Assembly (NCBI GenBank): GCA_028714455.1
Contig: JAQTMG010000002.1
Location: 102,047-166,046 of the forward strand
Direction of reading: 5' to 3'
From: Patescibacteria group bacterium
GTDB lineage: Bacteria > Patescibacteriota > Patescibacteriia > CAIXNZ01
Length of the DNA stretch: 64,000 bases
Positions 4,558-60,995 of this stretch are shown piece after piece. Positions within the stretch are counted from its first letter, which is position 1, and every line of letters begins with the position of its first letter. Under the pieces are notes generated by a model, which did not search any database, had not been told where the DNA came from, and worked only from the letters and a program-made list of their open reading frames with translations. The translations under genes and the position numbers were made by a program.

Positions 4558-4642
4558 ATTAGGTGATTAGTAGAGTGTGATTAGTGACTAATATCCATTC
4601 ACTCTCCACCAAACCCTCCACGCTCCACACTCAACGCTAAAC
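4558..4642. repeat. MITE-like intergenic repeat, copy 1
   Basis: Shares GTGATTAGTGAC(T/C)AATATCCA(T/A)T(C/T)ACTCTCCAC and CTCCAC/CTCAAC-rich tails with the copies at 10198, 21026 and 34659. Confidence 0.6.
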
Positions 4643-4660
4643 CAGCGAAAAAATATATTT

Positions 4661-10305: not shown

Positions 10306-10365
10306 AAATGGAAGGTTTGCATGGCGGTCTAGTGCGCACGCCTGCCCCGTACCAATATTTATCAA

Positions 10366-10406: not shown

Positions 10407-10494
10407 GGAGGGATCGCATAGTGGTCTAGTGCGCTTGCTTGGAGAGCAAGTGTGTCGCAAGGCACCGCGAGTTCAAATCTCGCTCCCTCCGCCA
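10407..10494 (+). tRNA. tRNA-Ser(GGA), complete with encoded CCA, nested inside the interrupted outer tRNA
   Basis: Acceptor GGAGGGA/TCCCTCC. Anticodon stem CTTGC/GCAAG with loop TTGGAGA. Long variable arm. T-arm GCGAG-TTCAAAT-CTCGC. Discriminator G then CCA. Confidence 0.8.
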
Positions 10495-26806: not shown

Positions 26807-26881
26807 TGGCTCCGGGGGTGGGATTCGAACCCACGACCAAAGGATTAACAGTCCTCTGCGCTACCACTGCGCTACCCCGGA
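26807..26881 (-). tRNA. tRNA-Asn(GUU)
   Basis: On the minus strand: UCCGGGG acceptor, D-arm GCGC-AGTGGTA-GCGC, anticodon stem GAGGA/TCCTT with loop CTGTTAA, T-arm GTGGG-TTCGAAT-CCCAC, CCA encoded. Confidence 0.85.
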
Positions 26882-27084
26882 AAATTTTGAATTTACTTCA
26901 CAACCACTACTTGCCCTTGCACCTTTGTGGTGCTGGGCGCTACCCCGGAATGGTATTAATAAAAAAACGAAATAGATTCGTTTTTTTACATTTGGAATAT
27001 AACATGTTTTTGAAAGAACGTCAATTTTGATCTTGATTTAAAATCGCCATATCAGCGATTTTTTGATATAGTTATAATATTCAA

Positions 27085-28182
27085 ATGAATAAAGCAATTA
27101 CATACAATATTATTGGGGTGTTGGTGGTTTTGGCCATAATCATTTTTAAGATACCGCTGATTTGGGTAATTCTTGGGATATTGATCCTTTTAATTTTTAT
27201 AATCTTTAATCCCTTTATACCCTCCGTGGAAAGCATTCCTAAGGGATTTACTGAAAAAAAATTCAATACCGGAAAAATAATTTTGAATTATATTGAAGGG
27301 CCGGATAATGGTCCTCCATTATTATTCATCCCGGGACAAATGGAATTCTGGCAGGGATATAAATTGGTAATTCCAAACTTTTCAAAAAATTATCATGTTT
27401 TTGTCGTTGACGTCCGGGGGCACGGAAAATCTACCAGAACTCCGGGCGAATATTCTTACAATATAATCGGAGAGGACCTTAAAGAATTTTTGGAAAAGGT
27501 TATTAAGAAGCCAGCGATTGTATCCGGACTTTCTTCCGGGGCTGTTCTTTCGCTTTGGTTGGCAGCCAACGCGCCCGAATTTGTTTCCATCGCAATCAGC
27601 GAAGACCCGCCATTCTTTTCTTCTATGTGGCCAAGAATTAAAGAAGAAAAATATATGTATCGTCTGTTTGAGGTCGCGGTTGATTGTCTTGGGAAACCGG
27701 AAAGAGATATATTGGGTTATTTTATGGCGCAGGGAATTCCAAAAGAGGGCCACGAGAAACTCTTTCTTATTCCTCCCTGGATAGCCAAATTTATAGTTGG
27801 GCTTTATGAACTTAATAAAAAAATCAGACCATCAAAACAATATGATATTCCTTTAGCGCCGTTCAGCGGACGGGTGGGATTCAAATTTTTGAATGAATAC
27901 GATGTTGATTTTTCAAAGGCAACGATTGACGGACGGTTAACTGAAGGATTTGATCCGGAAAACACTTTAAAAAAAATCAAATGCCCTGTCTTATTGATTC
28001 AGGCGCGCTGGTCCAGGCATAAAACCTGGGGATTGCTTGGAGCATTAGACGATAATGACGTTGAAAAAATTCGCTCAATCGTAAAGGATATTAAGGTGGC
28101 AAAAGTGAACGCTATTCATGACGTTCATTTGGCAAAACCAAAGATATTTATTAAAGTGGTGAATGATTATTTGGAAGGCTAG
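27085..28182 (+). CDS. membrane-anchored alpha/beta hydrolase
   Basis: N-terminal transmembrane helix. HGxGxS region GHGKS and nucleophile elbow GLSSG. Confidence 0.65.
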   Translation: MNKAITYNIIGVLVVLAIIIFKIPLIWVILGILILLIFIIFNPFIPSVESIPKGFTEKKFNTGKIILNYIEGPDNGPPLLFIPGQMEFWQGYKLVIPNFSKNYHVFVVDVRGHGKSTRTPGEYSYNIIGEDLKEFLEKVIKKPAIVSGLSSGAVLSLWLAANAPEFVSIAISEDPPFFSSMWPRIKEEKYMYRLFEVAVDCLGKPERDILGYFMAQGIPKEGHEKLFLIPPWIAKFIVGLYELNKKIRPSKQYDIPLAPFSGRVGFKFLNEYDVDFSKATIDGRLTEGFDPENTLKKIKCPVLLIQARWSRHKTWGLLGALDDNDVEKIRSIVKDIKVAKVNAIHDVHLAKPKIFIKVVNDYLEG

Positions 28183-28209
28183 AGCAATATTAAAATCTCC
28201 AAAAATATT

Positions 28210-29127
28210 ATGTATATATATTGTCCCCCCAAACCAATTGAATTAGAACTCACCGACGAGTGGGGTTTTAGAATTAGACAAAAAGCAGCCGAGTACATCG
28301 CCGCTAATCAAAACCGAACTGGCGCGGAACGAGGAAGCTCCGAAGAACAGGGATTTGGCGCACTTGCTGAAATGGTTATCCGCAATAAGTTGGGTATGCC
28401 AGAAATTAATCCGGAAAGCCATCCCCTTGGTTATGACCTTTTACTTCCTTCTGGCGTTAAAGTTGACGTAAAGTGTCGTGGCGGCTCACTCCCATTTAAA
28501 GAAGAATATGAAAGTGACGATGGAATTAAGAGGGAAGCAAAACACAATTTTTTTGCCCGCCAAATTCATGATGAAAATTTAGATACGGATATTTATGTAA
28601 TGACCCATCTTGAAACGCCAAAGAATAGAGTACTGCCCGGCACTACGCGACAAAAAAAATGGATACTATATATTTGTGGCTGGGTATCAAAAGAACGCGT
28701 ATATAAAGAGGGGGTTTATTTGCCGCGTGGTTCGCTGACAGAGCAAGGGAGAACCTGGTTCACTTATCGTGGCCAAGAGATTGAATTTTATAATCGTAAT
28801 CTTAATGGTCTCAATAACATTAATGACCTTATGAGTATTGAGTTAGCAGATGTGGAAAAGGACAAAGTCCGTGGAGGAGACTTAAATTTAACATCCGTCG
28901 ATGCTGTAAGAATCACCCATGACCTTATAGGGCGTGGCGTTTTGACAAAAGAACATCTGGCCTTTATCCAAAGGGATACTGGTCTGGAAAAAAACACAAA
29001 GCCCATCTTACATGCTAATCAATATTTCCATTTATTGAAATATCTTAAGAAAAAAGGTGCTGTCACGGACACGGAAATTGAAAAGGCGCGCCAGATCCTT
29101 CAAGAAGAACCATACGCGGGAATCTGA
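28210..29127 (+). CDS. putative Type II restriction endonuclease (PD-(D/E)xK fold)
   Basis: GYDLLL...VKVDVKCRG matches the PD...(D/E)xK pattern. It converges on and overlaps an adjacent DNA methyltransferase gene. Confidence 0.5.
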   Translation: MYIYCPPKPIELELTDEWGFRIRQKAAEYIAANQNRTGAERGSSEEQGFGALAEMVIRNKLGMPEINPESHPLGYDLLLPSGVKVDVKCRGGSLPFKEEYESDDGIKREAKHNFFARQIHDENLDTDIYVMTHLETPKNRVLPGTTRQKKWILYICGWVSKERVYKEGVYLPRGSLTEQGRTWFTYRGQEIEFYNRNLNGLNNINDLMSIELADVEKDKVRGGDLNLTSVDAVRITHDLIGRGVLTKEHLAFIQRDTGLEKNTKPILHANQYFHLLKYLKKKGAVTDTEIEKARQILQEEPYAGI

Positions 29128-30221
29128 AATAGCTTCAGTTTATTATTTTCTATTTTTTTATATAGCGTCTCGGCTTCTTTGATGCGCTGTTTAGAGACTG
29201 CCACGTAATCCGTTCGATATTTTTTAAACAAATAGACCTCTTGATTTTTTTCAATCCCAATATATTTTCTATTTTCCAAAACCGCTGCCACAAGAAAACT
29301 GCCACTTCCGCAAGTGTTATCTAGAACTATATCACCTTCTTTAGTGAATGTACGAATAAGATATCGACCAAGCTCTACCGGTTTTTGTGTAGGATGATAG
29401 ACTCTTCCCTCGCTCTCGGCGGTCTTGAAATAAACCACGTCAGTTGGATATCTTTCGCCATTACTTTTTACCTCAACTGCTTTAAAATCACCATAAGACC
29501 CAGTTAGCTGATCTTTTCTAAATCCTTTATTGTATGGCTCCCCAGGAGTCATTTGTGGATTATATATAGGCTGATTTTTATAAAAAATACATACATCTTC
29601 ATGTCTGCGAAGTGGCTGTCTTCTTGAGTTTAAAAAATTCGTTGGCTTTGACTTAACCCAGGCTATCTTGTATTTAAACAGTTTGGGTCTGGATAACATT
29701 AAATTTGCGGTAAATAATCCCTGGCTCGTCAAAGCAATAACGCCATTGTCTCGAATAACTCGTTCATAATGTTTCCACAATTGATCAAGAGGAATGACGC
29801 TATCCCAGTGATTTTGTGTTGTACCATACGGCAGATCGCACAAAATCATATCTATTGATTTGGGCGGAATATCATTCATTACTTTCAGGCAATCACCTTC
29901 AATCACGCGATTTTCGAAATATGATATTTCCTTTTCGGTTCTATTAACTTTAATTTCAGGCTCCTCAAAATTAAAATTTTTTCTTAAATACCAGTGACAA
30001 TAAGTATTTATCGGCAATCCTTCCTGTCGTGCACGACATTTAAGCTCGAGATAAGAATTCGTTCCAAGCAAATTACGCAGTTCGCTACTTCCAAGGTCGG
30101 CGATATTTTTATATAAATCTTTATTCCTTTTACCAAAAGCTAAAATAAGTCCTTTCGCTTTTGAGCTGATCTCTTTGCGATCGGAAAAATAGACAGCTTT
30201 GAAAATTTGGTTATCTCCCAT
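29100..30221 (-). CDS. DNA methyltransferase, beta class (N4-cytosine or N6-adenine)
   Basis: Motif IV DLPYG precedes motif I VLDNTCGSGSF, the order found in the beta group. Confidence 0.75.
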   Translation of the reverse strand: MGDNQIFKAVYFSDRKEISSKAKGLILAFGKRNKDLYKNIADLGSSELRNLLGTNSYLELKCRARQEGLPINTYCHWYLRKNFNFEEPEIKVNRTEKEISYFENRVIEGDCLKVMNDIPPKSIDMILCDLPYGTTQNHWDSVIPLDQLWKHYERVIRDNGVIALTSQGLFTANLMLSRPKLFKYKIAWVKSKPTNFLNSRRQPLRRHEDVCIFYKNQPIYNPQMTPGEPYNKGFRKDQLTGSYGDFKAVEVKSNGERYPTDVVYFKTAESEGRVYHPTQKPVELGRYLIRTFTKEGDIVLDNTCGSGSFLVAAVLENRKYIGIEKNQEVYLFKKYRTDYVAVSKQRIKEAETLYKKIENNKLKLFQIPAYGSS

Positions 30222-30359
30222 GCATATATTATAGTATGATACCTAAGTAAAATCTATAGTAAAATTTATAGATTTTATCCACAACTAGCCTTGACAACAA
30301 TGTTATATTATTCTAACATTAAGATAGTTAGAAATAATTAACATAATTAAACAAAACGT

Positions 30360-30746
30360 ATGACTAAAAAAACATTTTTAATTTACAAAATCATCGCGGT
30401 TATTGTCGTAGGTATCGCTTTTGGCGCCTCTGTCAATTTCGGCAACTGGTATCTGCCCCTGGCCATTCTTATCGCGGCCTGGGTTTTTCTGTATATTTTG
30501 AGGACCAGAGTTAAAGAAGTAATAGCAGACGAGCGCGACTATAACCTAGCCGGCAAGGCCTCGGCCTTGTCATTGAGAATTTTTGCCTCATTGGCAGTTA
30601 TCGCCGGCTTTATTCTTTATGTCGCCGAAAAGCAGAACGAAACTATGTTTGCGATCGGCAGTGTTCTTATGTATTCAGCCGGTTTTCTAATGCTGCTTTA
30701 CGCTATTATTTTTAAAATTTACGAAAAAAAAGATGAACGCAATTAA
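30360..30746 (+). CDS. DUF2178-like membrane protein
   Basis: Four transmembrane helices. Overlaps the downstream XRE regulator gene, a known gene pair. Confidence 0.5.
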
Positions 30747-30933
30747 AGTAAGGGTAAAAGAATTTCGGCTTAAAAAAGGCCTGACCCAAGAAGAATTAGC
30801 CAGACGAGTTGGTGTGCGTAGAGAAACTATTGTTTTTCTTGAACAAGGGAAATATAATCCGTCTCTAAAACTGGCACTTAACATAGCCAAAGAATTAAAA
30901 ATACCAGTTGATGAATTATTTTCTTTAGCATAA
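30733..30933 (+). CDS. XRE-family HTH transcriptional regulator (YozG-like)
   Basis: [30 protein letters not shown]. Confidence 0.75.
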
Positions 30934-30982
30934 ATAACGTAATTCAAAAAAGACCCAAGGAGGGCCTTTTTTGAGTATTTGA

Positions 30983-31597
30983 CTATTTATTTCTATTTTT
31001 CAGATGTCTCCAAATATATAGAACGATGAGTAAGAGCAGAAGCAACAGCATGAGTAAATCAAAGTTATGTAATTTTTGCTGGATTAGTTCCCAATTATTG
31101 CCCAATTTCACGCCCAGCCAGGTGAATAAGATGGTCCAGGGGATCACACCAAGAAAAGTAAATAAGGAGAATTTTTTAAAGTTCATTTCAGCTATGCCAG
31201 CCGGAAAGGAAATATAAGTTCTGATGACAGGCAAAAGCCGGCCAAAAAATACTGCCCAGTCACCATATTTATTAAACCATCTATCCGCCAAATTTAAATC
31301 ATGATGAGAAATTAAAATATATTTGCCATATTTTTCTATCAAAGTTCTGCCTCCATATCTGCCAATCAGATAGGCCAGACATGAGCCGACTAGATTGCCC
31401 AAGACACCGAAAATTACCACCAGCCAGAATAACAATCTGCCGTTGACAATTAAAAAACCAGAGAATGACATGATAATTTCCGAGGGGATAGGCAAACCGC
31501 AACTTTCCAAAAGCATCAGTATAAAAACTCCGGCATAACCGGTCTTGTCGATTATGGCAATAATGATTTGTATAAAAAAGTTTATCAGGGCTGTCAT
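30983..31597 (-). CDS. DedA/TVP38-family membrane protein
   Basis: DedA core GRLLPVIRTYISFPAGIAEM. Confidence 0.7.
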   Translation of the reverse strand: MTALINFFIQIIIAIIDKTGYAGVFILMLLESCGLPIPSEIIMSFSGFLIVNGRLLFWLVVIFGVLGNLVGSCLAYLIGRYGGRTLIEKYGKYILISHHDLNLADRWFNKYGDWAVFFGRLLPVIRTYISFPAGIAEMNFKKFSLFTFLGVIPWTILFTWLGVKLGNNWELIQQKLHNFDLLMLLLLLLLIVLYIWRHLKNRNK

Positions 31598-31699
31598 ATG
31601 CTTTTCATTATATTATTTTGAGCGCGTTTGGACAAGGCGGCGCTCTTTTATTTTTCTTCAAAAAGAGCTAAGATTGAATTAAGAAATTAACAAAAAATC

Positions 31700-32290
31700 A
31701 TGAAAAAAATCATTATCGGTTTTGTCAGCGCGTTGGTCATTATTGGTCTTGGTACCATTATTTATTATTTTGTGATGCCGCGCGAGCTTGGCTCGCTGCA
31801 GAATATTGATTTAAAATCGTCTGGTCCCACTGCTTCAAATCAGCCAATCAATAAAACCCAAGAATCAAACGACTATAAAATTTTAAAAACGACTGACTTT
31901 GAAGTCAAATATCCCAATTGGCAAAACATTGACGTTTCAACCATCCCTGACGCGAAATATGTGAAAGTGGCCGTCTCTAACCAAAGATGTGTTTTAATAA
32001 TCAAAGGTACTCCTTTACCCGCCAACACTAGCTACAAAGATTATATCGAGGGGATTATTAAGCAATCGGGCGCAGCTTTAAAAATAAATTCGCAACAAAT
32101 AAATAGCGCTTCGGCTTATCTGGATGGAGATGTCACTTCTGGACAAACCATTTTAAGAAACATTTCTTATAGCTATTTAGCCAAGAGCAACGTTGTCTAT
32201 GGCCTGGCCTTTGTTTCGGAAAAAAGCGTGTTTGAAAATTATTGCCGTGAGACGATTGAGAACGTAATTAATAGCGTGATTGTAAAATAA
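31700..32290 (+). CDS. secreted or membrane-anchored hypothetical protein
   Basis: N-terminal signal or transmembrane segment. Confidence 0.5.
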   Translation: MKKIIIGFVSALVIIGLGTIIYYFVMPRELGSLQNIDLKSSGPTASNQPINKTQESNDYKILKTTDFEVKYPNWQNIDVSTIPDAKYVKVAVSNQRCVLIIKGTPLPANTSYKDYIEGIIKQSGAALKINSQQINSASAYLDGDVTSGQTILRNISYSYLAKSNVVYGLAFVSEKSVFENYCRETIENVINSVIVK

Positions 32291-32291
32291 T

Positions 32292-33062
32292 ATGAAAGAA
32301 TCCATTCTAAATATAACCAAACCAAAAGAGTCAATTCCATCTTTTGAAAAATTTTCCGGCCTCTGGGAAAAAGGTTTTGAGGACATTAAAATATTTAACG
32401 GCAAAAGCGGCCGGATTGTCATGGGCACTGACAAGGGGTTGCGTGAACAGAATGAAGATATTATTGCCGTTGATTTTGGAAACGACGCCTTTGCCGTGAT
32501 TGATGGCATGGGCGGCTATGCGCATGGCCAAGAGGCGGCCCAAATAGTTGGCCTGCAATTTTTAAAAGCAGTCAAAGAAAAATTGAGCCCGCGCGAGATG
32601 CATAAAAATGCCCACATCGTGATGCAATGTACCGGTTTCAAAGAAAGCGGCGCCGTTTATCTGGCTGGCCAAATTGAAAAGAAAAAATTAAAAATCTGGT
32701 CTGCCGGCGATGCGCATTTAGTTGTTGTGGACAGTAAGGGTGAGATTAAATTCTCATCGAAATATACAACCTTGCAAGACGCGCCAAGCGGTCATGGACT
32801 TGGTGAAGCCAAAACCGATTTTACTTTACTAGAAAATTATGACAGAATTTTTGTTGGAAGTGATGGCTTGTTTAATAATATTAAAGATGAAGAGCTTAAA
32901 AATCTGAAAGGCGTGCCAATAGAAAAAGCCATGCAAGAATTGGTTAAATCCGCTAAAAATGCCATGAAAAACGGTCTTGATGAAAATACCGGCGGCAGTC
33001 CTGACAATCTTACGATTTTAATTTATGAAATTTTGCCCACGCCGTTACGTGGAAAAAATTAA
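32292..33062 (+). CDS. PP2C-family Ser/Thr phosphatase
   Basis: AVIDGMGGYAHG...SDGLF metal-binding motifs. Confidence 0.65.
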   Translation: MKESILNITKPKESIPSFEKFSGLWEKGFEDIKIFNGKSGRIVMGTDKGLREQNEDIIAVDFGNDAFAVIDGMGGYAHGQEAAQIVGLQFLKAVKEKLSPREMHKNAHIVMQCTGFKESGAVYLAGQIEKKKLKIWSAGDAHLVVVDSKGEIKFSSKYTTLQDAPSGHGLGEAKTDFTLLENYDRIFVGSDGLFNNIKDEELKNLKGVPIEKAMQELVKSAKNAMKNGLDENTGGSPDNLTILIYEILPTPLRGKN

Positions 33063-33127
33063 TATATTATTTTTCATTAAAATCAAGCAAATTCTAATCA
33101 AATGAAAAAAGCCGCCTGATTCTCAAA

Positions 33128-33160
33128 AGACCCCGAGATAGCATTAAGGGGTCTTTTTTA
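33128..33160 (+). terminator. terminator hairpin, 5' copy of a near-duplicate pair
   Basis: AGACCCCGAGATAGCATTAAGGGGTCT followed by T6. It closely matches the hairpin at 34613-34647. Confidence 0.55.
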
Positions 33161-33242
33161 TTATATATGACTTGATTTTTTTATTTTTATCTGTTAAGGT
33201 TATCCATCGGAACATTGAAAAAATAAAATTAAGGAGGAAAAA

Positions 33243-34604
33243 ATGGAAAAAGCGTTTACGATGGATCAAACGTGGCTACAATGCATGAATTGCGGACACA
33301 GAGCCGACTTGCTGGAGGAAAGAAAATTCAGGTGCCCAGAGTGCGGAGGACTCTATGATATTGAGCACAATTTTAAAAGATTGCCCGTTGATCTTGGGGA
33401 TGATTCGTCGGGAAGAAAATGGAGTTTTAAATCGTTGTCGTCCCGTTATTTTCGCGAGCTTTTTCAGGCCAGAGCTGGGGGCGCTTTCAATTCTTTTAAG
33501 CCGGAATGTGTTTCAGGCATCTGGCGCTACAAGGAATGGATTATGCCGTACTTGCCCGAAGGTCAGATTGTCACTTTGCACGAAGGCAACGTGCCAATCG
33601 TGCCAGCCGGTAAAAATCTTCAGGCCTGGGTCGGCGATGTTGAGCTTTATATCATAATGGAAGGCATGACTCCGACCGGTTCATTCAAGGATTTCGGCGG
33701 CACGGTCATGATGTCCATTGCCAAAGCCGCTGGCATCAAAGCCGTTTGTTGCGCCTCAACCGGCGACACTTCGGCCATGGCCGCGGCTTATGCGGCGGCG
33801 GCCGGCCTTGCCTGTGTGGTCATTTTGCCCCGCGGCAAAGTCACGCCAGTTCAATTGGCTCAACCGCTTGTTCACGGCGCCAGAGTCATCACTTTGCCCG
33901 GCAGCTTTGACGATTGCATGCGCGTCATGCAGGAACTCGTTAGAGAATACGGCATCTACCCGGCCAACAGTCTTAATCCTTCGAGGATCGAGGGCCATCA
34001 GGCCACGGTTTTTCAAATCGCCCAGCGCTTTAACTGGAATTTACCCGATTGGATTTCGGTGCCAGTGGGCAACGGCAGTAATTGTTCATCGGTTGGCAAA
34101 GCTCTGCGTCTTATGAAAAAATTCGGCTTTCAAGCGCCGACCAAAATTTTGGGCTGCCAATCAACGGCCGCCGATCCGCTTTCTTTTCCCTGGTTCGGCG
34201 GAATCACCCTGGAAAAGTGGAAAGCAGATTACTCGCCGATTAAAGTAGGCGAAACTTCTGCCACGGCCGCCAGAATCGGCGACCCTGTCTCTCGCGACAA
34301 AGTCATGAGAGAAATTCTGGCCTCGCATGGCGCCATGCAAACCGCGGCTGAAAGAGAATTGAACGAAGCCGTGGCCATTTGTGGTAAAGACGGCCATAAT
34401 GTCTGCCCGCAAACTGGCATGGCTCTGGCTGGCGTAAGAAATGCCTTGAAGTGCGGCCAAATTAAGGCGGGGGAGCGAGTTATTGTCGTTTCCACCGCAA
34501 CCGGCCTGAAGTTTGGCGAATCTGCCGCCGCCAACCTCAAATCAAACATTATTAATGCCACCGATTGTAAAATAAGCACGGTGGCCAAAATTATGGAACT
34601 GTAA
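33243..34604 (+). CDS. thrC: threonine synthase-family PLP enzyme with an N-terminal zinc ribbon, GC-rich and SD-led
   Basis: TPTGSFKDFGG matches PTLAFKDFGG. STGDTSAMAAA present. Zinc ribbon C-x2-C...C-x2-C. SD AAGGAGGAAAAAATG. Confidence 0.65.
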   Translation: MEKAFTMDQTWLQCMNCGHRADLLEERKFRCPECGGLYDIEHNFKRLPVDLGDDSSGRKWSFKSLSSRYFRELFQARAGGAFNSFKPECVSGIWRYKEWIMPYLPEGQIVTLHEGNVPIVPAGKNLQAWVGDVELYIIMEGMTPTGSFKDFGGTVMMSIAKAAGIKAVCCASTGDTSAMAAAYAAAAGLACVVILPRGKVTPVQLAQPLVHGARVITLPGSFDDCMRVMQELVREYGIYPANSLNPSRIEGHQATVFQIAQRFNWNLPDWISVPVGNGSNCSSVGKALRLMKKFGFQAPTKILGCQSTAADPLSFPWFGGITLEKWKADYSPIKVGETSATAARIGDPVSRDKVMREILASHGAMQTAAERELNEAVAICGKDGHNVCPQTGMALAGVRNALKCGQIKAGERVIVVSTATGLKFGESAAANLKSNIINATDCKISTVAKIMEL

Positions 34605-34612
34605 ATAACCCA

Positions 34613-34647
34613 AGACCCCGAGATTACATCAAGGGGTCTTTTTTTAT
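34613..34647 (+). terminator. terminator hairpin, 3' copy of a near-duplicate pair
   Basis: AGACCCCGAGATTACATCAAGGGGTCT followed by T7. Confidence 0.6.
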
Positions 34648-34658
34648 TGGTTTTTGAT

Positions 34659-34752
34659 GGAGAGTGGGTTAAGTAATCAGTTAAACGTGATTAGTGACCA
34701 ATATCCAATTACTCTCCACTAAATCCTCCACTCTCTACTCTCAACTCTAAAC
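34659..34752. repeat. MITE-like intergenic repeat, copy 4
   Basis: GTGATTAGTGACCAATATCCAATTACTCTCCACT is near-identical to copy 1. Confidence 0.6.
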
Positions 34753-34806
34753 AAGTACATGGTGGTCTTTTTCTTTTTTAAAAAATTGTGCTAAAATAAA
34801 TTCAAT

Positions 34807-35778
34807 ATGCAAATTATCAAAACAGAAAACTTGACCAAAAAATTCAATGGTTTTACGGCCGTTGATAATCTTAATCTTGAAGTTCAGGAAGGCGAAATTT
34901 TTGGTTTGCTGGGGCCTAATGGCGCTGGCAAAACCACTTCTATAATGATGCTGACTACTTTACTTAAACCAAGTTCGGGCACGGCCAAGGTTAATAATTT
35001 TGACATTGTCAACCAGCCAGACGCGGTCAGAAAATCAATTGGCGTGGTTTTTCAAGACCCTAGTTCAGACGACACCTTAACCGGTTATGAAAATTTAAAA
35101 CTTCACGGACTGCTTTATGGCATGCCGGCTGACTTGCGCGAACAAAGGATTAAAGAGGTTTTGAAACTCGTTGATTTGACTGACAGAAGAAATGATTTGG
35201 TGAAAAAATATTCAGGCGGCATGAGAAGACGATTAGAATTAGCCAGGGGATTAATGCACCACCCCAAAGTATTATTTTTAGATGAACCAACGCTTGGTCT
35301 TGACCCTCAATCACGCACAACAATTTGGGCTTATGTCCAGGAGTTGGCCAAAAAAGAAAAAATATCAATCATTTTAACAACTCATTACATGGATGAAGCA
35401 GATCAGCTCTGTAATCGATTGGCCATCATTGATCATGGCAAAATTTCAGCCCTTGATTCACCGTCAAATTTGAAAAAAGTAATTGGCGGCGATGTGGTCT
35501 TGGTAAAAGTTGAAAATCCCAATCTGGATGAAATAAAAAAACTGGACTTTGTTAAAAAAACTCAAGTTCATGATGGCTACGTGACATTAACAGTTGCCAA
35601 TGCCAGTGAGAATTTAGCCCGCATTCTACAAACAATCGGCAAGGTTGAATCAGTTGATGTCCATTTGCCAACTCTAAATGATGTTTTTCTTCATTACACG
35701 GGCAAAGAAATCAGAGAAGGTTCAGCCGAGGGTGGCTGGGGCGAGAGAGTAATGAGCTTTAGATCCAGAAAAAATTAG
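34807..35778 (+). CDS. ABC transporter ATP-binding protein
   Basis: Walker A GPNGAGKTT, signature LSGGMRRR, Walker B LFLDEP. Confidence 0.85.
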   Translation: MQIIKTENLTKKFNGFTAVDNLNLEVQEGEIFGLLGPNGAGKTTSIMMLTTLLKPSSGTAKVNNFDIVNQPDAVRKSIGVVFQDPSSDDTLTGYENLKLHGLLYGMPADLREQRIKEVLKLVDLTDRRNDLVKKYSGGMRRRLELARGLMHHPKVLFLDEPTLGLDPQSRTTIWAYVQELAKKEKISIILTTHYMDEADQLCNRLAIIDHGKISALDSPSNLKKVIGGDVVLVKVENPNLDEIKKLDFVKKTQVHDGYVTLTVANASENLARILQTIGKVESVDVHLPTLNDVFLHYTGKEIREGSAEGGWGERVMSFRSRKN

Positions 35779-35789
35779 TATTATTACTT

Positions 35790-36581
35790 ATGTATCAAAT
35801 GAGCCAAACAAAAAATGAAATAGTCGGCATCTATGCTGTCTGGTATCGAGAATTCAAGGTTTTTTTAAGAGAAAAATCCAGAATTGTTTCTTCGGTTATT
35901 AACCCAATTTTGTGGCTTTTTATATTCGGCGCCGGTTTGGGTTCCAGCATCAACATCTCGGGCTTAAATTATCAGGCCTTTATTTTTCCTGGCATCCTGG
36001 CCCAAGTCGTGCTTTTCTCTTCAGTTTTTTACGGTGTCTATATTGTCTGGGACAGAAAAATTGATTTTTTAAAAGAAGTTTTGGTCGCGCCGATTTCTCG
36101 CACCTCAATTTTTATTGGCAAGGTTTTGGGCGGCGCCACCGATGCCATGATTCAAATAATTATTTTATTAATCTTTGGCTGGATTTTTGGTCTGGTCGGA
36201 TTAATTCCGGGGCTGCACATCACTTTATTTACGGGTATTGGCGCTCTCTTTGTTTTATTTTTTACCACTGTATCCTTAACCAGCGTTGGCTTAATTCTAG
36301 GTTCACAAATGGAAAGCCCCGAGGGTTTTCAATTGATCTCCAGCTTTCTTTTGTTTCCGATATTTTTCTTGTCAGGCGCGCTTTTCCCACTCAATAATTT
36401 GCCGGTCTGGCTTGGCTCTCTTACAAAATTAGACCCCATGACTTACACGGTTGACGCGGCCAGACATATTATCTTAGGCACCTCTCAATATGGCTTAGGC
36501 CTTGATCTGATCGTAATTATCGCTTTCATGCTAGTCATGATCTGGCTTGGCACCTATGCTTTTGAAAAAATGAAATTATAA
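35790..36581 (+). CDS. ABC-2 type transporter permease
   Basis: Six transmembrane helices immediately downstream of the ATPase gene. Confidence 0.7.
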   Translation: MYQMSQTKNEIVGIYAVWYREFKVFLREKSRIVSSVINPILWLFIFGAGLGSSINISGLNYQAFIFPGILAQVVLFSSVFYGVYIVWDRKIDFLKEVLVAPISRTSIFIGKVLGGATDAMIQIIILLIFGWIFGLVGLIPGLHITLFTGIGALFVLFFTTVSLTSVGLILGSQMESPEGFQLISSFLLFPIFFLSGALFPLNNLPVWLGSLTKLDPMTYTVDAARHIILGTSQYGLGLDLIVIIAFMLVMIWLGTYAFEKMKL

Positions 36582-36625
36582 AGCATGCGGCAAATAGTAC
36601 CGATGTCTGGCTTTTTAAAACCGAG

Positions 36626-36650
36626 ACCGTCACGCCAGTGGCGGTTTTTT
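36626..36650 (+). terminator. terminator hairpin, 5' copy of a near-duplicate pair
   Basis: ACCGTCAC-GCCA-GTGGCGGT followed by T6. Matches 37747-37775. Confidence 0.5.
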
Positions 36651-36751
36651 CTTTATTTACTTTAGTCGAGCTTTATGCTACTTTTTTAAGAGGCACCTTA
36701 AAATAAGTCTGAAATTTACCAAATTAAACCAGGAGGCAAAGGAGGTAAGCC

Positions 36752-37732
36752 ATGGATAAAATCGTTTTTTCAAAACCGCTTTCAAGAACCGCGCTGGTTG
36801 ATGCAATTCGGAGGAGACAACCCGTGTCGCAAAGAGCGGCCAAGAAACTGGCGCTTCATCTGGCCAAAAAATTCGGCACGGAGATCAGAAGAGCAGTGGA
36901 AAAAGCGCTTAAAAAACAGGGTGCGTACTCAATCATGGCCATAAGCAAATTAAAACCCCGGATTTCCAATGAGGACGGCTGGAGAGTGAGCTGGCCTTCT
37001 TACCGATGGTATTGCCGGATCGCGGGCGGATTTTACGAAGTAACTACGTCCCTTGCCATTGTCGTTTGCCACGGACAGATGAGTTCGAAACTTTGGGTAA
37101 CCAATCAGCTGAACGCTCTTTGCGTCAGAAAAAGAAAAAGTTTCCGGGTTCAACAGTCGGGATTCGAAGTTATCGCGATAAAAACATTTCTAGAGCGAAT
37201 GAAACCGGTTACGCAAGAAATCTGCGGCTTAATTTGGCCGTATTACAAACGATCCGTCAGAGACGTTCTGCGCCAGAATACCGTTCATTATTGTTGGTTT
37301 GTTTGCGAGGGCGCCGAGACAGACCAATTACTGATAACGCCGCTATTATCTCGAAAAGAATTTCTAGAAACGATTAAACATTGCGACGGCTACAAATTCT
37401 TCATCGAGAACTTCTATCTGCCGTTGTCAAAAGCTCAATCTAATAGATCGCTTGTTGGCGAGGGGATAAAAGAATTAGAGAAAAGGGGTTATCCTTGTAT
37501 CTGGATTTTGCACAGTGATAGTTCTTTTTTCTTCCCCGAGTCGGTTATAAAGGACGCTTATAGTTCAGTCGACAACAAAAAAATGCGTCCCGCCTACCGC
37601 TTGATTGGTTTGGCCTCTAATCTTTACCCCCATCTTGAAGGACCAGCCTATCAGCCGTTTTGGGAAATTTCCTATTACGCGGTAAATCATTTTGCTGATG
37701 CCTTTAAAAATCCGCGACCCAAAAGAAGGTGA
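36752..37732 (+). CDS. hypothetical protein, GC-rich and SD-led
   Basis: SD AGGAGGCAAAGGAGGT. Basic N-terminus. No recognised motifs. Confidence 0.5.
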   Translation: MDKIVFSKPLSRTALVDAIRRRQPVSQRAAKKLALHLAKKFGTEIRRAVEKALKKQGAYSIMAISKLKPRISNEDGWRVSWPSYRWYCRIAGGFYEVTTSLAIVVCHGQMSSKLWVTNQLNALCVRKRKSFRVQQSGFEVIAIKTFLERMKPVTQEICGLIWPYYKRSVRDVLRQNTVHYCWFVCEGAETDQLLITPLLSRKEFLETIKHCDGYKFFIENFYLPLSKAQSNRSLVGEGIKELEKRGYPCIWILHSDSSFFFPESVIKDAYSSVDNKKMRPAYRLIGLASNLYPHLEGPAYQPFWEISYYAVNHFADAFKNPRPKRR

Positions 37733-37746
37733 GCTTTTAGCAACGA

Positions 37747-37775
37747 GGCCGTCACGCCAGTGACGGCCTTTTTTA
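37747..37775 (+). terminator. terminator hairpin, 3' copy
   Basis: GGCCGTCAC-GCCA-GTGACGGCC followed by T6. Confidence 0.6.
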
Positions 37776-37820
37776 TTAATACAAAAACCACCCCGCGACG
37801 CGGAGTGGTTTTTGGTTTAC

Positions 37821-38000
37821 TTAGTAGCGATTTCTTTGTGGTCGTCTTGCCCTGTGGCAGTCCCTGCAGAGTAGTTGATCTAATCTGGCTGGATCTGGTT
37901 CAAAGGGAAGCTCGGTGATGTCAGCGCCGCAGGAAGAACACTTCCAGTTGCCCTGAAACATCTTTCTAGGTTGAAAACCGCCTTGATTTCCGAAAGCCAT
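37821..38000 (-). CDS. CxxC-x17-CxxC zinc-ribbon small protein (59 aa)
   Basis: MAFGNQGGFQPRKMFQGNWKCSSCGADITELPFEPDPARLDQLLCRDCHR. Under 60 aa, so absent from the ORF track. Confidence 0.5.
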   Translation of the reverse strand: MAFGNQGGFQPRKMFQGNWKCSSCGADITELPFEPDPARLDQLLCRDCHRARRPQRNRY

Positions 38001-38165
38001 TTTGCTTTGACTTAATAATTAACTCGAAACAAAATGGCACTTATGTTATAAAACGAATTTTATATTTATACTGCCGATTTGCTCGATTGATAACAGTATA
38101 GCACGTCTGGAGTATTTTGTCAACGATACATTGACCAAAAGCCATTTTTTAGCTAAAATTAACTA

Positions 38166-39431
38166 ATGAAAATACAAATCGAAAAATTAGTCTTTGGCGG
38201 TCAGGGCATAGGCAGGTTCGAAGGCAAAACCGCCTTTGTCTGGAATGCTCTGCCAGGCGAAGAAGTGGAAGCACTCTTGATAAAGAAACACAAAAACATC
38301 ATTGAGGCTATCGCTACCGAGATAATCAAACCGTCGCCGGACAGGATTAAAAAAATCGAAGAGCATTTTTTGGCTTGCAGTCCCTGGCAGATTTTGTCAT
38401 ACGCGAAAGAAAATATTTGGAAAAAAGAAATCGCCAAAGAAACTTATAAAAAGTTTGCTGACTTAAAAATGTCCGAACTTGAGATTGAAAGTGATGAAAA
38501 AGAATTTGGCTACCGCAATAAAATCGAATATAGTTTCACTCTGGATAACGCCGGAAAAATAACCCTGGCTTTTTTCATCAGAGGTAAACATAAACTCTCG
38601 GCTATTAACGACTGCCAACTGGCCACGGAGCCAATAAATAAAATCGCGCATAAAATAGTTGATTGGCTTAATTTAAACGAGGTGCCAATTCGCAGCTGCA
38701 AATCATTGATTGTCAGATCAAATCAGGCAGGGGAGACAATCGCCGCCCTTTTCATTAAAGATGTCTTGAGTTTTGAAGAATACCCGGAACTTGACGAAAA
38801 ATTTTTGGGTTTTACTTTATATTTTTCAGACCCTCATTGCCCGGCCTCAATCCCAACCCAAACTCTATATTCTGTCGGCCAGGATTTTCTGATTGAAGAA
38901 ATTAATGGAATTAAATTGCGCTACGGCGTTTCAAGTTTTTTCCAGGTTAATGTGCCAATTTTTGAAAAAGCGCTCGCTGATATTGAAAAATTTTTGGATA
39001 AGAAAAAAGAAGTGCTGGATTTTTACTCTGGCGTGGGGGCGATAAGTTTAGCTCTGCATAATAAATTTAAATCAGCTGTTTTGGTTGATAATAATGAAGA
39101 AGCGATTAGCTTTGCCAAAGTAAATATTGAATTAAATAAAATTAAAAATTGTGAAGCGCAAGCTAGTGAAGCTGAAAAAATCGCTGAATTAATAACCAAA
39201 GATAAAATTTTAATTGTTGATCCGCCTCGGGTCGGCTTGCATTACAAAGTGATTGATAAAATTCTTGAAGTCAAGCCTCGGCGGATAATTTATTTATCCT
39301 GCAATCTAGCCACCCAAGCGCGCGACCTTAAAATGTTAAAAGGGGAGTATGAAGTCAAATTTTCCAAACTTTATAATTTCTTTCCCAGGACGCCGCACAT
39401 CGAGGGTTTGTGCGTTTTAGAAAGAAAATAA
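38166..39431 (+). CDS. RNA (uracil-C5)-methyltransferase, RlmD/TrmA family (TRAM plus SAM methyltransferase)
   Basis: N-terminal TRAM domain. FFQVN and DPPRVGL motifs. Catalytic Cys near the C-terminus. Confidence 0.7.
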   Translation: MKIQIEKLVFGGQGIGRFEGKTAFVWNALPGEEVEALLIKKHKNIIEAIATEIIKPSPDRIKKIEEHFLACSPWQILSYAKENIWKKEIAKETYKKFADLKMSELEIESDEKEFGYRNKIEYSFTLDNAGKITLAFFIRGKHKLSAINDCQLATEPINKIAHKIVDWLNLNEVPIRSCKSLIVRSNQAGETIAALFIKDVLSFEEYPELDEKFLGFTLYFSDPHCPASIPTQTLYSVGQDFLIEEINGIKLRYGVSSFFQVNVPIFEKALADIEKFLDKKKEVLDFYSGVGAISLALHNKFKSAVLVDNNEEAISFAKVNIELNKIKNCEAQASEAEKIAELITKDKILIVDPPRVGLHYKVIDKILEVKPRRIIYLSCNLATQARDLKMLKGEYEVKFSKLYNFFPRTPHIEGLCVLERK

Positions 39432-42985: not shown

Positions 42986-43177
42986 ATGTCACAGGTTCTC
43001 TCACTGCTCAACGAGCAGATTCTCAATTTTGCTTTATTAATGGAGGATGAGGGCGAAGAAGAAGCCGAGGAAGAAGCTGAAGAAGAGACTGAAGAGGAGG
43101 AGGATGAAGATGAAGAAGGCGACGAAACCAAAAAAGAAGACGAAGAAGAAGACGAAGACGAAGAAGAAGGATTTTAA
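42986..43177 (+). CDS. small protein with a 43-residue polyacidic (Glu/Asp) tail
   Basis: Own promoter and terminator. N-terminal amphipathic segment then EEEAEEEAEEETEEEEDEDEEGDE... Confidence 0.45.
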   Translation: MSQVLSLLNEQILNFALLMEDEGEEEAEEEAEEETEEEEDEDEEGDETKKEDEEEDEDEEEGF

Positions 43178-45420: not shown

Positions 45421-46146
45421 ATGACCAAAGTAAAAAGAACAATAAAAAGAATAGTTAAAATTCCGGCCCTACCCGGACCCGGACCAGAGAAAAAAATTTC
45501 TCTGCAAAAGATGTCGGATATCACCTGGCGCATTTTTAGAATCATGTCCGAATTTGTGGACGGCTTTGAATTTCTTTCAAAGCTTAAAAAAGAAGTCACG
45601 ATTTTTGGTTCAGCTCGTTTGGACCATCAAAACCATTGGTGCAAGGAAGCGGAAAAACTGGGACATATTTTAGTCAGGCACGGATTTACAGTAATCACGG
45701 GAGGCGGTCCTGGCATCATGGAAGCCGCCAATAAGGGCGCTTATGGCGTTAATCCCGACAAATCAGTTGGCATTAATATCCAATTACCTACCGAGCAGAG
45801 AGTGAATCCTTATGTTAAAAAAGCCGCGGGCTTCTACTATTTTTTCACGAGAAAAGTCATGCTGGCCGCTTCGGCCCAATCCTATATTTTCTTTCCGGGC
45901 GGTTATGGCACGGCCGATGAATTTCTGGAAATCCTTGAATTAGTACAGACTGGCAAAATGCAAAAAACGCCAATAATTTTAATGGGCAAAGACTTTTGGC
46001 TGCCTCTGATAAGTTGGTTTGAAAAAACCATGGCGAAAAAATATAAAACCATTAACCCAAAGGATATAAAACTTTTCCATGTCGTTGATACCGCCGAACA
46101 AGCTTTTAAATATATAAAAGGCTCTCACGAAAGAACTATATTTTAG
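45421..46146 (+). CDS. LOG-family (TIGR00730) nucleotide 5'-monophosphate nucleosidase
   Basis: VTIFGSARL...GGGPGIMEAANKGA...PGGYGTADE. Confidence 0.8.
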   Translation: MTKVKRTIKRIVKIPALPGPGPEKKISLQKMSDITWRIFRIMSEFVDGFEFLSKLKKEVTIFGSARLDHQNHWCKEAEKLGHILVRHGFTVITGGGPGIMEAANKGAYGVNPDKSVGINIQLPTEQRVNPYVKKAAGFYYFFTRKVMLAASAQSYIFFPGGYGTADEFLEILELVQTGKMQKTPIILMGKDFWLPLISWFEKTMAKKYKTINPKDIKLFHVVDTAEQAFKYIKGSHERTIF

Positions 46147-46295
46147 AGATTAGAGATTGGAGATTAGAAATTAGGGAAATGAATTAATCAAAAAGGGCAA
46201 ATCAAAATTGCTCTTTTTGTCATTGACAAAATTTAAAAAATATGCTAAGATAAAACAATTGGTTCATTTAAAATAAACGCAGAGGAGGATAAAAA

Positions 46296-46874: not shown

Positions 46875-47026
46875 CACTCAAACTGAAGTAATTCAAAGTC
46901 GACGACCCGCCAAAGTCAAAAGTGACTCGGCGGGTTTTTTCTTCGACGCCAAAATTTTAAACCCTATGGCCATTATTGACAATAAACCTACTTTATGTTA
47001 AGTTAAAATCAAAAAGGAGGGAAAAA

Positions 47027-47296
47027 ATGTCGCTAATACTATGTCAAGGAACAAAGCCAACAAATCTGTCAATCAAGACGTTTGGGTGCTGCGACGACAA
47101 ATTTGTTCATTTGGGTAAGTATAAAATTACCATGAACGATTTCGTTGCCGCAGCAATGTATGTGCTGACGAACACTGACCTCGAGGAAAATGATCCGCGG
47201 CTGGAATTCGTCAAGGCAGTACAACGGCTAAAACCCGTAAAAGGTTTTAATCGTGGCTCCAAGAGACTAACCATACCGAAAGGCAAAAAGAAGTAA
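47027..47296 (+). CDS. hypothetical protein, GC-richer and SD-led, flanked by CCCGCC/GGCGGG hairpins
   Basis: SD AAAAAGGAGGGAAAAAATG. Hairpin-plus-T-run terminators at about 46903-46945 and 47300-47340. Confidence 0.5.
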   Translation: MSLILCQGTKPTNLSIKTFGCCDDKFVHLGKYKITMNDFVAAAMYVLTNTDLEENDPRLEFVKAVQRLKPVKGFNRGSKRLTIPKGKKK

Positions 47297-47366
47297 CGTC
47301 TCAAACCCGCCGATGCACAAGCAAAGGCGGGTTTTTTCTTTTACGAAATTTTGCTAAAATTAGCTT

Positions 47367-59694: not shown

Positions 59695-60099
59695 TCATTC
59701 CGAGCGTAGCGCGAGGAATCCATAACATCGATTAATATGAAACAATATTGCGTTTACATAATGACTAACAAAAGTGACTCCGTGGATTATACCGGCATAA
59801 CGAATAATTTATTTCGAAGAGTATACGAGCATAAAACCCATTTTAATGAGAAGAGTTTTACTTCAAAATATAATATCAATAAATTAGTTTATTTTGAGGA
59901 ATATAATAATCCCGATCAAGCCATATACAGAGAAAAGCAAATAAAGGGCTTGAGTAGAGAAAAAAAATTTAATTTAATAAAAACTATCAATCCTGATTTT
60001 AATGATTTGGCCAGAGATTGGTATAAAGATAGCCAGGCCGAGCGCAAAGAACAACCGACTCAACCTAAATCATAGATTCCACGCTGCGCTCTGAATGAC
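59694..60099 (+). mobile_element. GIY-YIG nuclease cassette bracketed by about 27-bp imperfect inverted repeats
   Basis: Left repeat GTCATTCCGAGCGTAGCGCGAGGAATCC at 59694-59721. Right repeat GGATTCCACGCTGCGCTCTGAATGAC at 60075-60099. A gene-less copy of the same repeats lies at 2371-2455. Confidence 0.55.
59737..60075 (+). CDS. GIY-YIG family nuclease (COG2827-like)
   Basis: YCVYIMTN...DYTGITNNLFRRVYEHK GIY...YIG motifs. Confidence 0.75.
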   Translation: MKQYCVYIMTNKSDSVDYTGITNNLFRRVYEHKTHFNEKSFTSKYNINKLVYFEEYNNPDQAIYREKQIKGLSREKKFNLIKTINPDFNDLARDWYKDSQAERKEQPTQPKS

Positions 60100-60125
60100 A
60101 GTTGTGGCTCGGCTTTTGCAAAAAT

Positions 60126-60995
60126 ATGGATTTATCAATAATAATTGTAAATTGGAACGTCAAAGACTTGCTACGAAAATGTCTGCAATCAATCTATAAA
60201 AAAACTCAAGGCCTTGAATTTGAAGTTTTTGTAGTTGATAACGCCTCAAAAGATAATTCAATTCAAATGGTTTTAAAAGAATTTCCTCAAGCAACTTTAA
60301 TCGCTTCAAATGTAAATCTGGGTTTCGCCAGAGCCAATAATCTAGCGCTCGAACAGGCCAGAGGAAAATATATTTTATTCATGAATCCAGATATGGAGCT
60401 GGTTGAAAATTCTTTTCCTAAATTAATTGAACTAATGGATAAGGATCCAAAAATCGCTTTGTCCACTTGCCAATTAATTTATCCTGACAGCTCCAGGCAA
60501 AATAATGTTAAAAATAACCCTGGATTTTGCGACCAATTTTTAATCCTCTTAAAACTCCATCATCTTTTTCAACCACGATGCTTAAAGAGATATTTGGCCA
60601 AGGATTTTGATTATTCCAAAGAACAAGAAGTTCGGCAAATAATGGGCGCTTTTATTTTTGCCAATGGCGAGATAATAAAAAAACTTGGCGGCTGGGATAC
60701 TGAATATTTTCTTTGGTGGGAAGATTTGGATTTATGCAAAAGAGTACAGGATACCGGTTATAAAATTGTTTACACGCCAAGCACAAAAGTTATACATTAT
60801 GAAGCCAAGGCCTTTGAGCAGCAACCTAGTTTGGAAAAACAAAAAAGATTTAATAGGGGAATGAGAATATATTTTAAAAAACATTTTGGTTTATTGGTTT
60901 ATTGGTTTATTGGTTTATTGGGGTTTATAAGCTTGGGTCTAGCCTGGTTGAGTCAGATCTTTAAAATCAAGCCAAAAACGCAATCAAAGTTATAG
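60126..60995 (+). CDS. glycosyltransferase family 2
   Basis: LSIIIVNWNVKDLL, DNASKDNS and a DxD-type FMNPD motif. ATG at 60126 preferred over 60102. Confidence 0.75.
   Translation: MDLSIIIVNWNVKDLLRKCLQSIYKKTQGLEFEVFVVDNASKDNSIQMVLKEFPQATLIASNVNLGFARANNLALEQARGKYILFMNPDMELVENSFPKLIELMDKDPKIALSTCQLIYPDSSRQNNVKNNPGFCDQFLILLKLHHLFQPRCLKRYLAKDFDYSKEQEVRQIMGAFIFANGEIIKKLGGWDTEYFLWWEDLDLCKRVQDTGYKIVYTPSTKVIHYEAKAFEQQPSLEKQKRFNRGMRIYFKKHFGLLVYWFIGLLGFISLGLAWLSQIFKIKPKTQSKL

Follow-up and report, generated by a model that had tools for sequence, protein, structure and literature searches.

A repeated terminator-like hairpin brackets an orphan gene of an uncultivated Patescibacteria bacterium

Gene content of the locus

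The window, by which we mean the whole 64-kb stretch of DNA analysed here, comes from the chromosome of a Patescibacteria (CPR) bacterium that has not been cultivated, with the housekeeping genes dnaG, rpoD, alaS, mnmA and typA around the locus under study. The closest named relatives of its RlmD protein were found in Candidatus Magasanikbacteria, at about 54-59% identity. Other short intergenic repeats occur in the window, among them D3 (87 nt) and D16 (33 nt). The features of the locus are as follows.

33126..33159, + strand: T1, upstream hairpin copy of the thrC-like pair, orthologous to positions 1567-1597 of the related locus L101
33243..34604, + strand: thrC-like PLP enzyme with a PALP domain and an N-terminal zinc ribbon
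34612..34644, + strand: T1', downstream hairpin copy of the thrC-like pair, orthologous to positions 4254-4282 of the related locus L088
34807..36581, + strand: operon of an ABC transporter, made up of an ATPase gene (34807-35778) and an ABC-2 permease gene (35790-36581), with T2 as its predicted end
36613..36650, + strand: T2, upstream hairpin copy, with a stem-loop at 36623-36648 and a T-run
36651..36751, + strand: leader of ORF326, 100 nt, AT-rich, with a double Shine-Dalgarno sequence (AGGAGG, AAGGAGG)
36752..37732, + strand: ORF326, encoding an orphan protein of 326 aa (NCBI hypothetical protein PHC97_01815, Patescibacteria group bacterium)
37735..37775, + strand: T2', downstream hairpin copy, with a stem-loop at 37745-37770 and T6; predicted terminator of ORF326
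37786..37815, bidirectional: T3, predicted terminator of the convergent gene zf59
37821-38000, - strand: zf59, the 59-aa zinc-finger gene, convergent to ORF326

The T2 repeat follows the permease stop codon after 32 nt, and the T2' repeat begins 3 nt past the TGA of ORF326. A gap of 10 nt separates T2' from T3, the sequence of which is unrelated to that of T2 and T2'. The original prediction of an SD-led ORF at 36752-37732 was borne out by the AGGAGG...AAGGAGG that precedes it, and the leader also contains a weak promoter-like sequence, TTTACT...TGCTACTTT, which is putative and was read from the sequence.

T2 and T2' as a pair of predicted intrinsic terminators

Similar hairpins had been described on either side of ORF326, and a repeat search confirmed them as a direct repeat of 38 nt (36613-36650 versus 37735-37772) with 82% identity and a spacing of 1122 nt. 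The whole T2 repeat (36613-36650) reads TTTTAAAACCGAG-ACCGTCAC-GCCA-GTGGCGGT-TTTTT, with GAGACCGTCAC-GCCA-GTGGCGGTTTT+TT at 36623-36650; the whole T2' repeat (37735-37775) reads TTTTAGCAACGAG-GCCGTCAC-GCCA-GTGACGGC-CTTTTTT, with GAGGCCGTCAC-GCCA-GTGACGGCCTT+TTTT at 37745-37775. The 18-mer common to the two, CCGTCACGCCAGTGRCGG, has two occurrences in the 64-kb window when up to three mismatches are allowed, against 0.02 expected, and is, like GACCCCGAGATNNNATNAAGGGGTC, a terminator-hairpin sequence. No significant similarity between the flanks of T2 and T2' was seen beyond the hairpin and T-run in shuffle tests, which ruled out a repeat that reaches into the flanks or into the 3' end of ORF326.

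Both copies are predicted to fold into an 11-bp stem with a GCCA loop followed by a U-tract, with energies of -16.2 kcal/mol (z -3.6) for T2 and -22.6 kcal/mol (z -5.9) for T2'. They lie on the coding strand, just 3' of stop codons, and were both caught by a terminator scan. With a GC-rich stem-loop, a T tract and a site downstream of a stop codon, T2 and T2' have the make-up of canonical Rho-independent terminators, and activity as such is predicted for them. The two differ by four substitutions in the stem, A-T to G-C (both sides), G.T to G-C and T.G to T-A, two of these changes being from wobble to Watson-Crick pairs. Since all four substitutions keep base pairing, both copies are under structural selection, and T2 and T2' are by their anatomy paralogous intrinsic terminators which have each been kept under selection to fold. 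A search of positions 33000-38200 against Rfam (E<=1) returned no element, and across the window Rfam recognised three tRNAs and nothing else.

The terminators of neighbouring genes are normally of unrelated sequence. Like other Rho-independent terminators, T2 and T2' have a GC-rich stem of 11 bp and a loop of 4 nt, and each lies on the coding strand, runs into a T6 tract and sits just past a stop codon; what sets them apart is that the two hairpins around one gene are paralogs.

Similarity of the pair against the background of other hairpins

The 61 terminator-like hairpins that a looser hairpin definition yields in the window were compared all against all by local alignment, giving 1,824 pairs with a mean score of 5.8 and a standard deviation of 1.5. 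The thrC-like pair scored highest (25.5), followed by T2/T2' (18.5) and by a pair at 46904/47303 (14.0), as against 13.5 for the best pair that does not bracket a gene. The three highest pairs are exactly the gene-bracketing pairs to which the original prediction had drawn attention, and its view that ORF326 shares its architecture with the thrC-like gene and with the ORF at 47027 therefore stands. The similarity within the pairs is far above the background formed by other terminators, and the result that would have overturned the original prediction, flanking hairpins no more alike than any random terminators, was not obtained.

In a wider comparison, 321 hairpins from the window and some 85 further loci were paired in 51,338 ways, with a mean score of 4.35 and a standard deviation of 1.12; T2/T2' scored 17.0 and the thrC-like pair 21.5. 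The remaining high scores belonged to orthologous pairs between related loci, with the exception of one within locus L027, where a 57-aa gene is duplicated in tandem, so that this pair was rejected as an instance of the same phenomenon. Other loci totalling about 1.2 Mb contained no comparable gene-bracketing pair. T2/T2' is a true repeat, a chance match being statistically excluded, and the arrangement as such is real, statistically solid and uncommon, with two or three cases in the 64-kb window.

T2 and T2' could be envisaged as members of a dispersed REP- or MITE-like family of terminators, belonging to the genome or to the donor of an island, in which case their adjacency would be incidental. 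The search covered 64 kb of a 188-kb contig, and the window does have the repeats D3 and D16, both of which speak for this possibility. Extension of the sequence past the window added 2.3 kb on one side. However, each hairpin family has exactly two copies in the 64 kb, always adjacent and always around one ORF, and in about 90 fetched loci (~1.2 Mb) copies of T2 occurred only on contigs L001 and L002, both of them 100% identical to the window. Nine exact matches to the 18-mer in IMG/VR are, by our own estimate, roughly at chance level, and random dispersal would be very unlikely to make the members of each of the three highest-ranked pairs, out of 1,824, neighbours. We consider a dispersed family quite unlikely for these reasons. 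Still harder to accept is that unrelated neighbouring terminators were made similar by gene conversion or by chance. In the loop of the T1 hairpins a position that is C in both window copies and T in L088 and L101 hints at conversion between paralogs; conversion, however, requires prior similarity and chance is excluded as above, so that such an origin is highly improbable.

ORF326 and its family

PHC97_01815 is a MAG protein encoded on a contig of 188,654 bp, and its only match among 5.8 billion clustered proteins was to itself. An exhaustive HMMER search of 1.84 billion representative proteins yielded three homologs (P0002-P0004; 331, 347 and 235 aa) with 27-32% identity, and a fourth listed match, P0005, was set aside as a repetitive protein. 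Motifs common to the family include SKLW, with EGA and YRLxGL in the three full-length members, and ORF326 is a real gene of a tiny family. The protein had been called hypothetical, and a search of domain databases upheld its orphan status, with no match in Pfam, PHROG, PADLOC, NCBIfam, the PDB sequence profile or the phage and plasmid collections; no reverse-transcriptase domain (Pfam) and no sign of nuclease, recombinase or transposase character were found in it.

The homologs sit on short contigs among hypothetical genes, and the only one with readable flanks, in locus L085, has no flanking hairpin pair. The description of the cassette as GC-rich was correct in direction and marginal in extent, as the GC content of ORF326 (0.451) ranks ninth of 60 and exceeds the gene mean of 0.410 by about one standard deviation (0.043).

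A variable slot between conserved genes

Searches with RlmD and the thrC-like protein led to syntenic relatives at 72-76% identity, namely L088/L089, L090, L091 and L101. In L088, L090 and L091, where RlmD is 72-74% identical to that of the window, the thrC-like gene, zf59, rlmD and the RNHCP and LssY genes are conserved, and L088 keeps the gene order thrC-like, zf59, rlmD, RNHCP, LssY, DOT1-like gene, DUF4015 and LOG. Between the thrC-like gene and zf59/rlmD, the relatives have genes for proteins of 45 aa and 67 aa, an EamA protein, a 268-aa protein and a SIMPL protein, all five of them being present in L088; SIMPL adjoins zf59 in L090 as well. By BLASTN, the segment specific to the window runs from 34650 to 37772, that is, from just after the terminator of the thrC-like gene to just after T2'. 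Neither the ABC operon nor ORF326 is present in L088-L091 and L101. Since the content of the slot differs between syntenic relatives, ORF326, with the ABC operon, is lineage-specific cargo in a variable slot.

The ortholog of T3 in L088, L090 and L091 is the hairpin that follows SIMPL, and from this point on the window is again syntenic with its relatives. In the relatives T3 stands alone after the upstream SIMPL gene, and T2' is redundant at its site in the window, T3 being only 10 nt on. This redundancy would fit a terminator that was brought along with the gene or made by the event through which the gene was gained.

An empty site, in which permease, T2 and T3 would follow one another, was not found in searches for homologs of the permease, RlmD and the thrC-like protein, which is attributable to no sampled relative being close enough. 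A scan of GTDB species genomes with the permease gave matches of at most 74% identity, with no synteny and with unrelated terminators, and a scan of JGI metagenomes with RlmD gave only relatives at 55-59%. Homologs of the permease are scattered over Patescibacteria and many archaea, in unrelated contexts.

The thrC-like pair and a third pair

The thrC-like gene is conserved in place in L088 (72% identity) and L101 (76%). L088 has one copy of the T1-family hairpin, directly after the thrC-like gene, with 27 of 29 nt identical to T1'. L101 has one visible copy, upstream of the thrC-like gene, which follows a different gene than in the window; this gene encodes a 68-aa CxC protein and lies downstream of the thrC-like gene in L088. 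In the L101 hairpin the outer stem has covaried (TCTC/GAGG for CCCC/GGGG), with an unchanged inner part. T1 (33125) is exactly where the window begins to be homologous to L101, the genes upstream of it being different. The upstream copies of the family share AAAAGAC in their flanks and the downstream copies share CAAGAC. Outside the contigs identical to the window, the hairpin was found once each at the thrC locus of L088, of its near-duplicate L089 and of L101.

Since L101 retains the upstream hairpin and L088 the downstream one, the duplication that gave T1 and T1' predates the split of the three lineages, and this hairpin family is the only one here that allows a dating. The thrC-like gene has not moved since, and its cassette is no recent insertion. 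As T1/T1' is older than the lineages, such pairs can persist for long, and the acquisition of ORF326 is not necessarily the time at which T2/T2' arose. A match of 66 nt and 79% identity between T1' of L088 and T1 of the window had raised the possibility that the duplicated unit consisted of terminator plus promoter; this was downgraded, as the promoters of the clade are consensus-like and abut the T-runs.

The third pair is weaker and comprises the following features.

46904..46942, + strand: upstream hairpin, ACCCGCC...GGCGGGTTTTTTCTT
47027..47296, + strand: 89-aa orphan ORF within the pair, with no Pfam or NCBIfam match
47303..47340, + strand: downstream hairpin, directly upstream of mnmA

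This pair aligns with hairpins of L088 that lie around an unrelated gene of 105 aa, with a score of 12.5 that falls within the tail of the background. The likeness is confounded by the terminator-promoter junctions of the clade, in which intergenic regions are strongly consensus-like and TTGACA abuts the T-run.

Comparison with known mobile systems

Mobility genes were sought by comparing 29 ORFs between 4.6 and 51.7 kb with Pfam, together with precomputed Pfam hits at 30.3-47.7 kb; within those limits of 4.6 and 51.7 kb the scan passed over several ORFs at 6.9-21.6 kb. Neither the 29 ORFs nor the precomputed hits included a recombinase, an integrase, a transposase (HUH or other) or a reverse transcriptase.

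The attC sites of integrons measure about 57-141 nt and contain the boxes R'' (RYYYAAC) and R' (GTTRRRY). A regular-expression search for RYYYAAC and GTTRRRY on both strands of T2, T2', T1 and T1' found no match. No tyrosine recombinase was present in the scanned ORFs and the three hairpin pairs have no common consensus, so that an integron is not indicated. Terminal inverted repeats of at least 8 nt between the two ends were lacking apart from TTTTTAAA, as opposed to what a MITE would have. As regards IS200/IS605, PATE and REP-RAYT elements, ORF326 and its neighbours contain no TnpA/RAYT or TnpB domains, and there are no more than two copies of each hairpin in the 64 kb; a class C group II intron is likewise not indicated, given that neither an Rfam match nor a reverse-transcriptase domain in ORF326 was found.

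Clusters of attC sites that have no integrase are known as CALINs (PMC7923331). The locus is like integron cassettes and CALINs in having promoter-poor single ORFs between imperfect palindromes in direct repeat. In contrast to them, R''/R' boxes and a consensus between cassettes are lacking, the hairpins are of 26-38 nt and carry T-tracts, and no IntI was found. Terminator or REP stem-loops serve as landmarks for the insertion of group IIC introns and of some IS elements (PMC4424553). In those cases, however, the hairpin is not duplicated, and the elements carry a ribozyme and a reverse transcriptase, or a transposase, none of which was found here.

These observations bear on the possibility that the hairpins are sites for a recombinase or transposase, of the attC/CALIN, IS200/IS605 or Xer type, with ORF326 and one hairpin as the mobile unit. 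A gene within directly repeated hairpins, a pattern seen three times in 64 kb, would be expected for such a cassette, as would the conservation of the inner T1 hairpin in four copies with covariation of the outer stem in L101. Yet each pair is unrelated in sequence to the others, hence there is no common site; attC boxes and terminal inverted repeats are lacking and the hairpins are shorter than attC; the ORFs scanned at 4.6-51.7 kb held no integrase, transposase or reverse transcriptase, nor did Rfam return an element at 33000-38200; and every hairpin has a coding-strand T-tract, as a terminator would. The long residence of the thrC-like gene and the L085 homolog devoid of a hairpin pair speak against it as well, and a self-mobile cassette is in our judgement very doubtful. 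The common mechanism of insertion or mobilisation originally put forward is thus only partly supported: the recurring architecture, the lineage-specific gene and the variable slot favour it, and a shared machinery has no support, the pairs differing in sequence and having neither attC boxes nor terminal inverted repeats nor a recombinase in the scanned ORFs.

Minimal mobile elements, or genomic islets, belong to naturally transformable bacteria and have been described for Neisseria (PMC3082526, PMC1538595). The locus corresponds to them in its conserved thrC-like and zf59/rlmD flanks, in the unrelated cargo of the relatives and in that no mobility genes were seen. It differs in that minimal mobile elements owe their definition to homologous exchange via the flanking genes. 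We know of no description of minimal mobile elements with duplicated terminators around single cargo genes, and a literature search for duplicated terminators that flank inserted genes returned nothing relevant.

A related possibility is that the hairpins, with the abutting promoter, act as conserved punctuation at which the homologous recombination of the host exchanges, adds or removes single genes between related strains. The likely route for such an exchange would be natural transformation with circularised, repeat-flanked fragments, the repeats being both its product and its substrate. Breakpoints of synteny at the hairpins favour it, as L101 homology starts at T1 and L088 homology stops after T1' (34649) and resumes after T2' (37773); so do the 105-aa gene of L088, placed between hairpins that align with the third pair and enclose unrelated genes, and a ComEC-type Competence domain in a related Patescibacteria locus. 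On the other hand, recombination would have only some 30-38 bp of homology to work with, the orthology score of the third pair lies within the background tail, and in consensus-like intergenic regions the apparent conservation may partly be convergence. Breakpoints fall in intergenic DNA anyway, and polymorphic or empty sites were not observed. An exchange of single genes through such short homology is therefore unlikely.

Possible origin of the pair

The explanation that we favour, with somewhat better than even confidence, is that T2 and T2' arose by local duplication of a terminator, linked to the gain of ORF326 in the variable slot, and that the gene is not self-mobile. T2 and T2' would descend from a single terminator, T2 now ending the ABC-transporter operon and T2' ending ORF326 and shielding the convergent zinc-finger gene from read-through. 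ORF326 would have been acquired passively, between the conserved thrC-like gene and zf59/rlmD, and the duplication would most likely have taken place when a gene was added beside an existing terminator. Candidate routes are a Campbell-type integration by a single crossover within the short homology of the hairpins, a switch of template at the hairpin as the DNA was replicated, and insertion between tandem terminator copies. By any of them the upstream operon may have retained a terminator and the added gene been provided with its own, and selection for hairpin formation could then have preserved both copies, each being needed as a terminator. We infer how and when the duplication took place, and that it goes together with the arrival of ORF326; similarity that is limited to the hairpin would fit an original event of more than one size or mechanism.

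In Campbell-type insertion-duplication and in the integration of CRISPR spacers, a short target that is in part palindromic ends up in direct copies on both sides of the insert. The likeness is meant as an analogy of mechanism only, as neither a circular intermediate nor an integrase nor Cas1 was seen here.

As the evidence stands, the terminators at the locus are ordinary and what is uncommon is their arrangement around an orphan gene. If the duplication of a terminator regularly accompanies the gain of a gene, it would be a simple way for a foreign ORF in a compact genome to become a transcription unit of its own that is insulated, and would offer a sequence signature by which recently or anciently added genes could be recognised in uncultivated bacteria. 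A bolder reading is that terminator hairpins with an abutting promoter form the joints of a gene-by-gene turnover of cassettes in this Patescibacteria lineage, which we hold to be improbable. Each insertion of a single ORF would duplicate the hairpin, and recombination of one hairpin copy with another would remove the ORF again, an integron-like outcome reached with neither attC nor a recognisable integrase. Such turnover, if true, would account for synteny breaks exactly at the hairpins, and if the hairpins are recombination joints, cassettes would be exchanged in a new way in a phylum in which gene flow is poorly understood.

Predicted structure of the ORF326 protein

An AlphaFold (AF2) model of ORF326 was built from the four-sequence alignment and has a mean pLDDT of 57.6, with values of about 70-90 over most of residues 21-170 and below 50 from residue 179 to the end, so that it can be used for about residues 21-170 only. 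The N-terminal ~175 residues were modelled as beta-alpha-alpha-beta6-alpha, and the C-terminal half is left with no confident model. Sequence profiles gave no support for a START, Bet v 1 or SRPBCC fold. A Foldseek search of the PDB with the model returned many START/Bet v 1-like matches, all of them weak (E about 1e-3, TM <=0.44), which are taken as a hint, and not as an assignment, that the N-terminal half may be START-like.

Rearrangement around the thrC-like gene

The thrC-like PLP enzyme (33243-34604) carries an N-terminal zinc ribbon, with weak DUF7129 and Cas12f TNB-type matches. Its GC content of 0.519 is the highest of any gene in the window (mean 0.410), yet the gene is kept at the same place in relatives. 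In L101 and L088, two loci of relatives syntenic with the window, a small protein of 67-68 aa with the pattern CxC...CPVHGY is encoded on opposite sides of it:

L101 1342-1548, CxC...CPVHGY gene, 5' of thrC-like
L088 4506-4709, CxC...CPVHGY gene, 3' of thrC-like

After the thrC-like stop codon, L101 lacks about 135 nt, comprising a hairpin and a promoter, that are present in L088. These differences between L101 and L088 amount to a local rearrangement with its ends at the hairpin.

The interval between tRNA-Asn and the thrC-like gene differs too (window 26807-33062 versus L088 1-2708). In the window it encodes an alpha/beta hydrolase, a 305-aa unknown protein, an N6/N4 DNA methylase (29100-30221, minus strand), DUF2178, an HTH protein, a VTT protein and a SpoIIE-like phosphatase. 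The counterpart in L088 and L101 contains an MliC-domain gene plus small ORFs. The window interval is possibly an islet next to a tRNA gene that includes a restriction-modification-like pair.

Terminator-promoter junctions

Usually, in this clade, the T-run of a terminator runs straight into the -35 TTGACA of the gene that comes next (TTTTATTATTGACAAA), as at these junctions:

Window 46195-46251 and 46936-47010
L088 17955-17990, 18390-18420 and 4276-4300

Intergenic regions thus resemble each other even if they are non-orthologous.

An 87-nt intergenic repeat

Two copies of an 87-nt intergenic repeat, 80% identical and GATTAG-rich in their 5' part, were found in the window:

4559-4645, 5' of a heavy-metal P-type ATPase (4661-6862; HMA and E1-E2 ATPase domains)
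34669-34755, 5' of the ABC operon (ATPase and ABC-2 permease)

No Rfam match to the repeat was obtained, and the promoter-like TGCTAAAAT precedes one copy but follows the other. Since homologues of the P-type ATPase and the ABC operon lie no more than a few kb apart in five other fetched loci (L012, L016, L023, L024 and L067), a candidate regulatory element shared by the two is suggested.

Other repeated sequences

Positions 10310-10344, 97 nt upstream of the tRNA-Ser(gga) gene, are 77% identical to its 5' half (10407-10441); as neither ARAGORN nor Rfam called a tRNA at 10310-10344, this sequence may be a decayed tRNA copy. Further short repeats in the window included:

2412-2444 and 60072-60104, 33-nt repeat GGATTCCACGCTRCGCTCTGAATGAC, 88% identical
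46146-46185, GATTAG-type short-repeat run agagattagagattggagattagaaattaggg, 3' of a LOG-family gene
43049-43169, GAA/GAG-rich periodic repeat, period 9 to 12 nt

The orthologous spacer of L088 holds no GATTAG-type run. The genes immediately 3' of the two 33-nt copies (2464-3921 and 60102-60995) are unrelated, and the GAA/GAG-rich repeat encodes the acidic Glu/Asp low-complexity tail of a small ORF.
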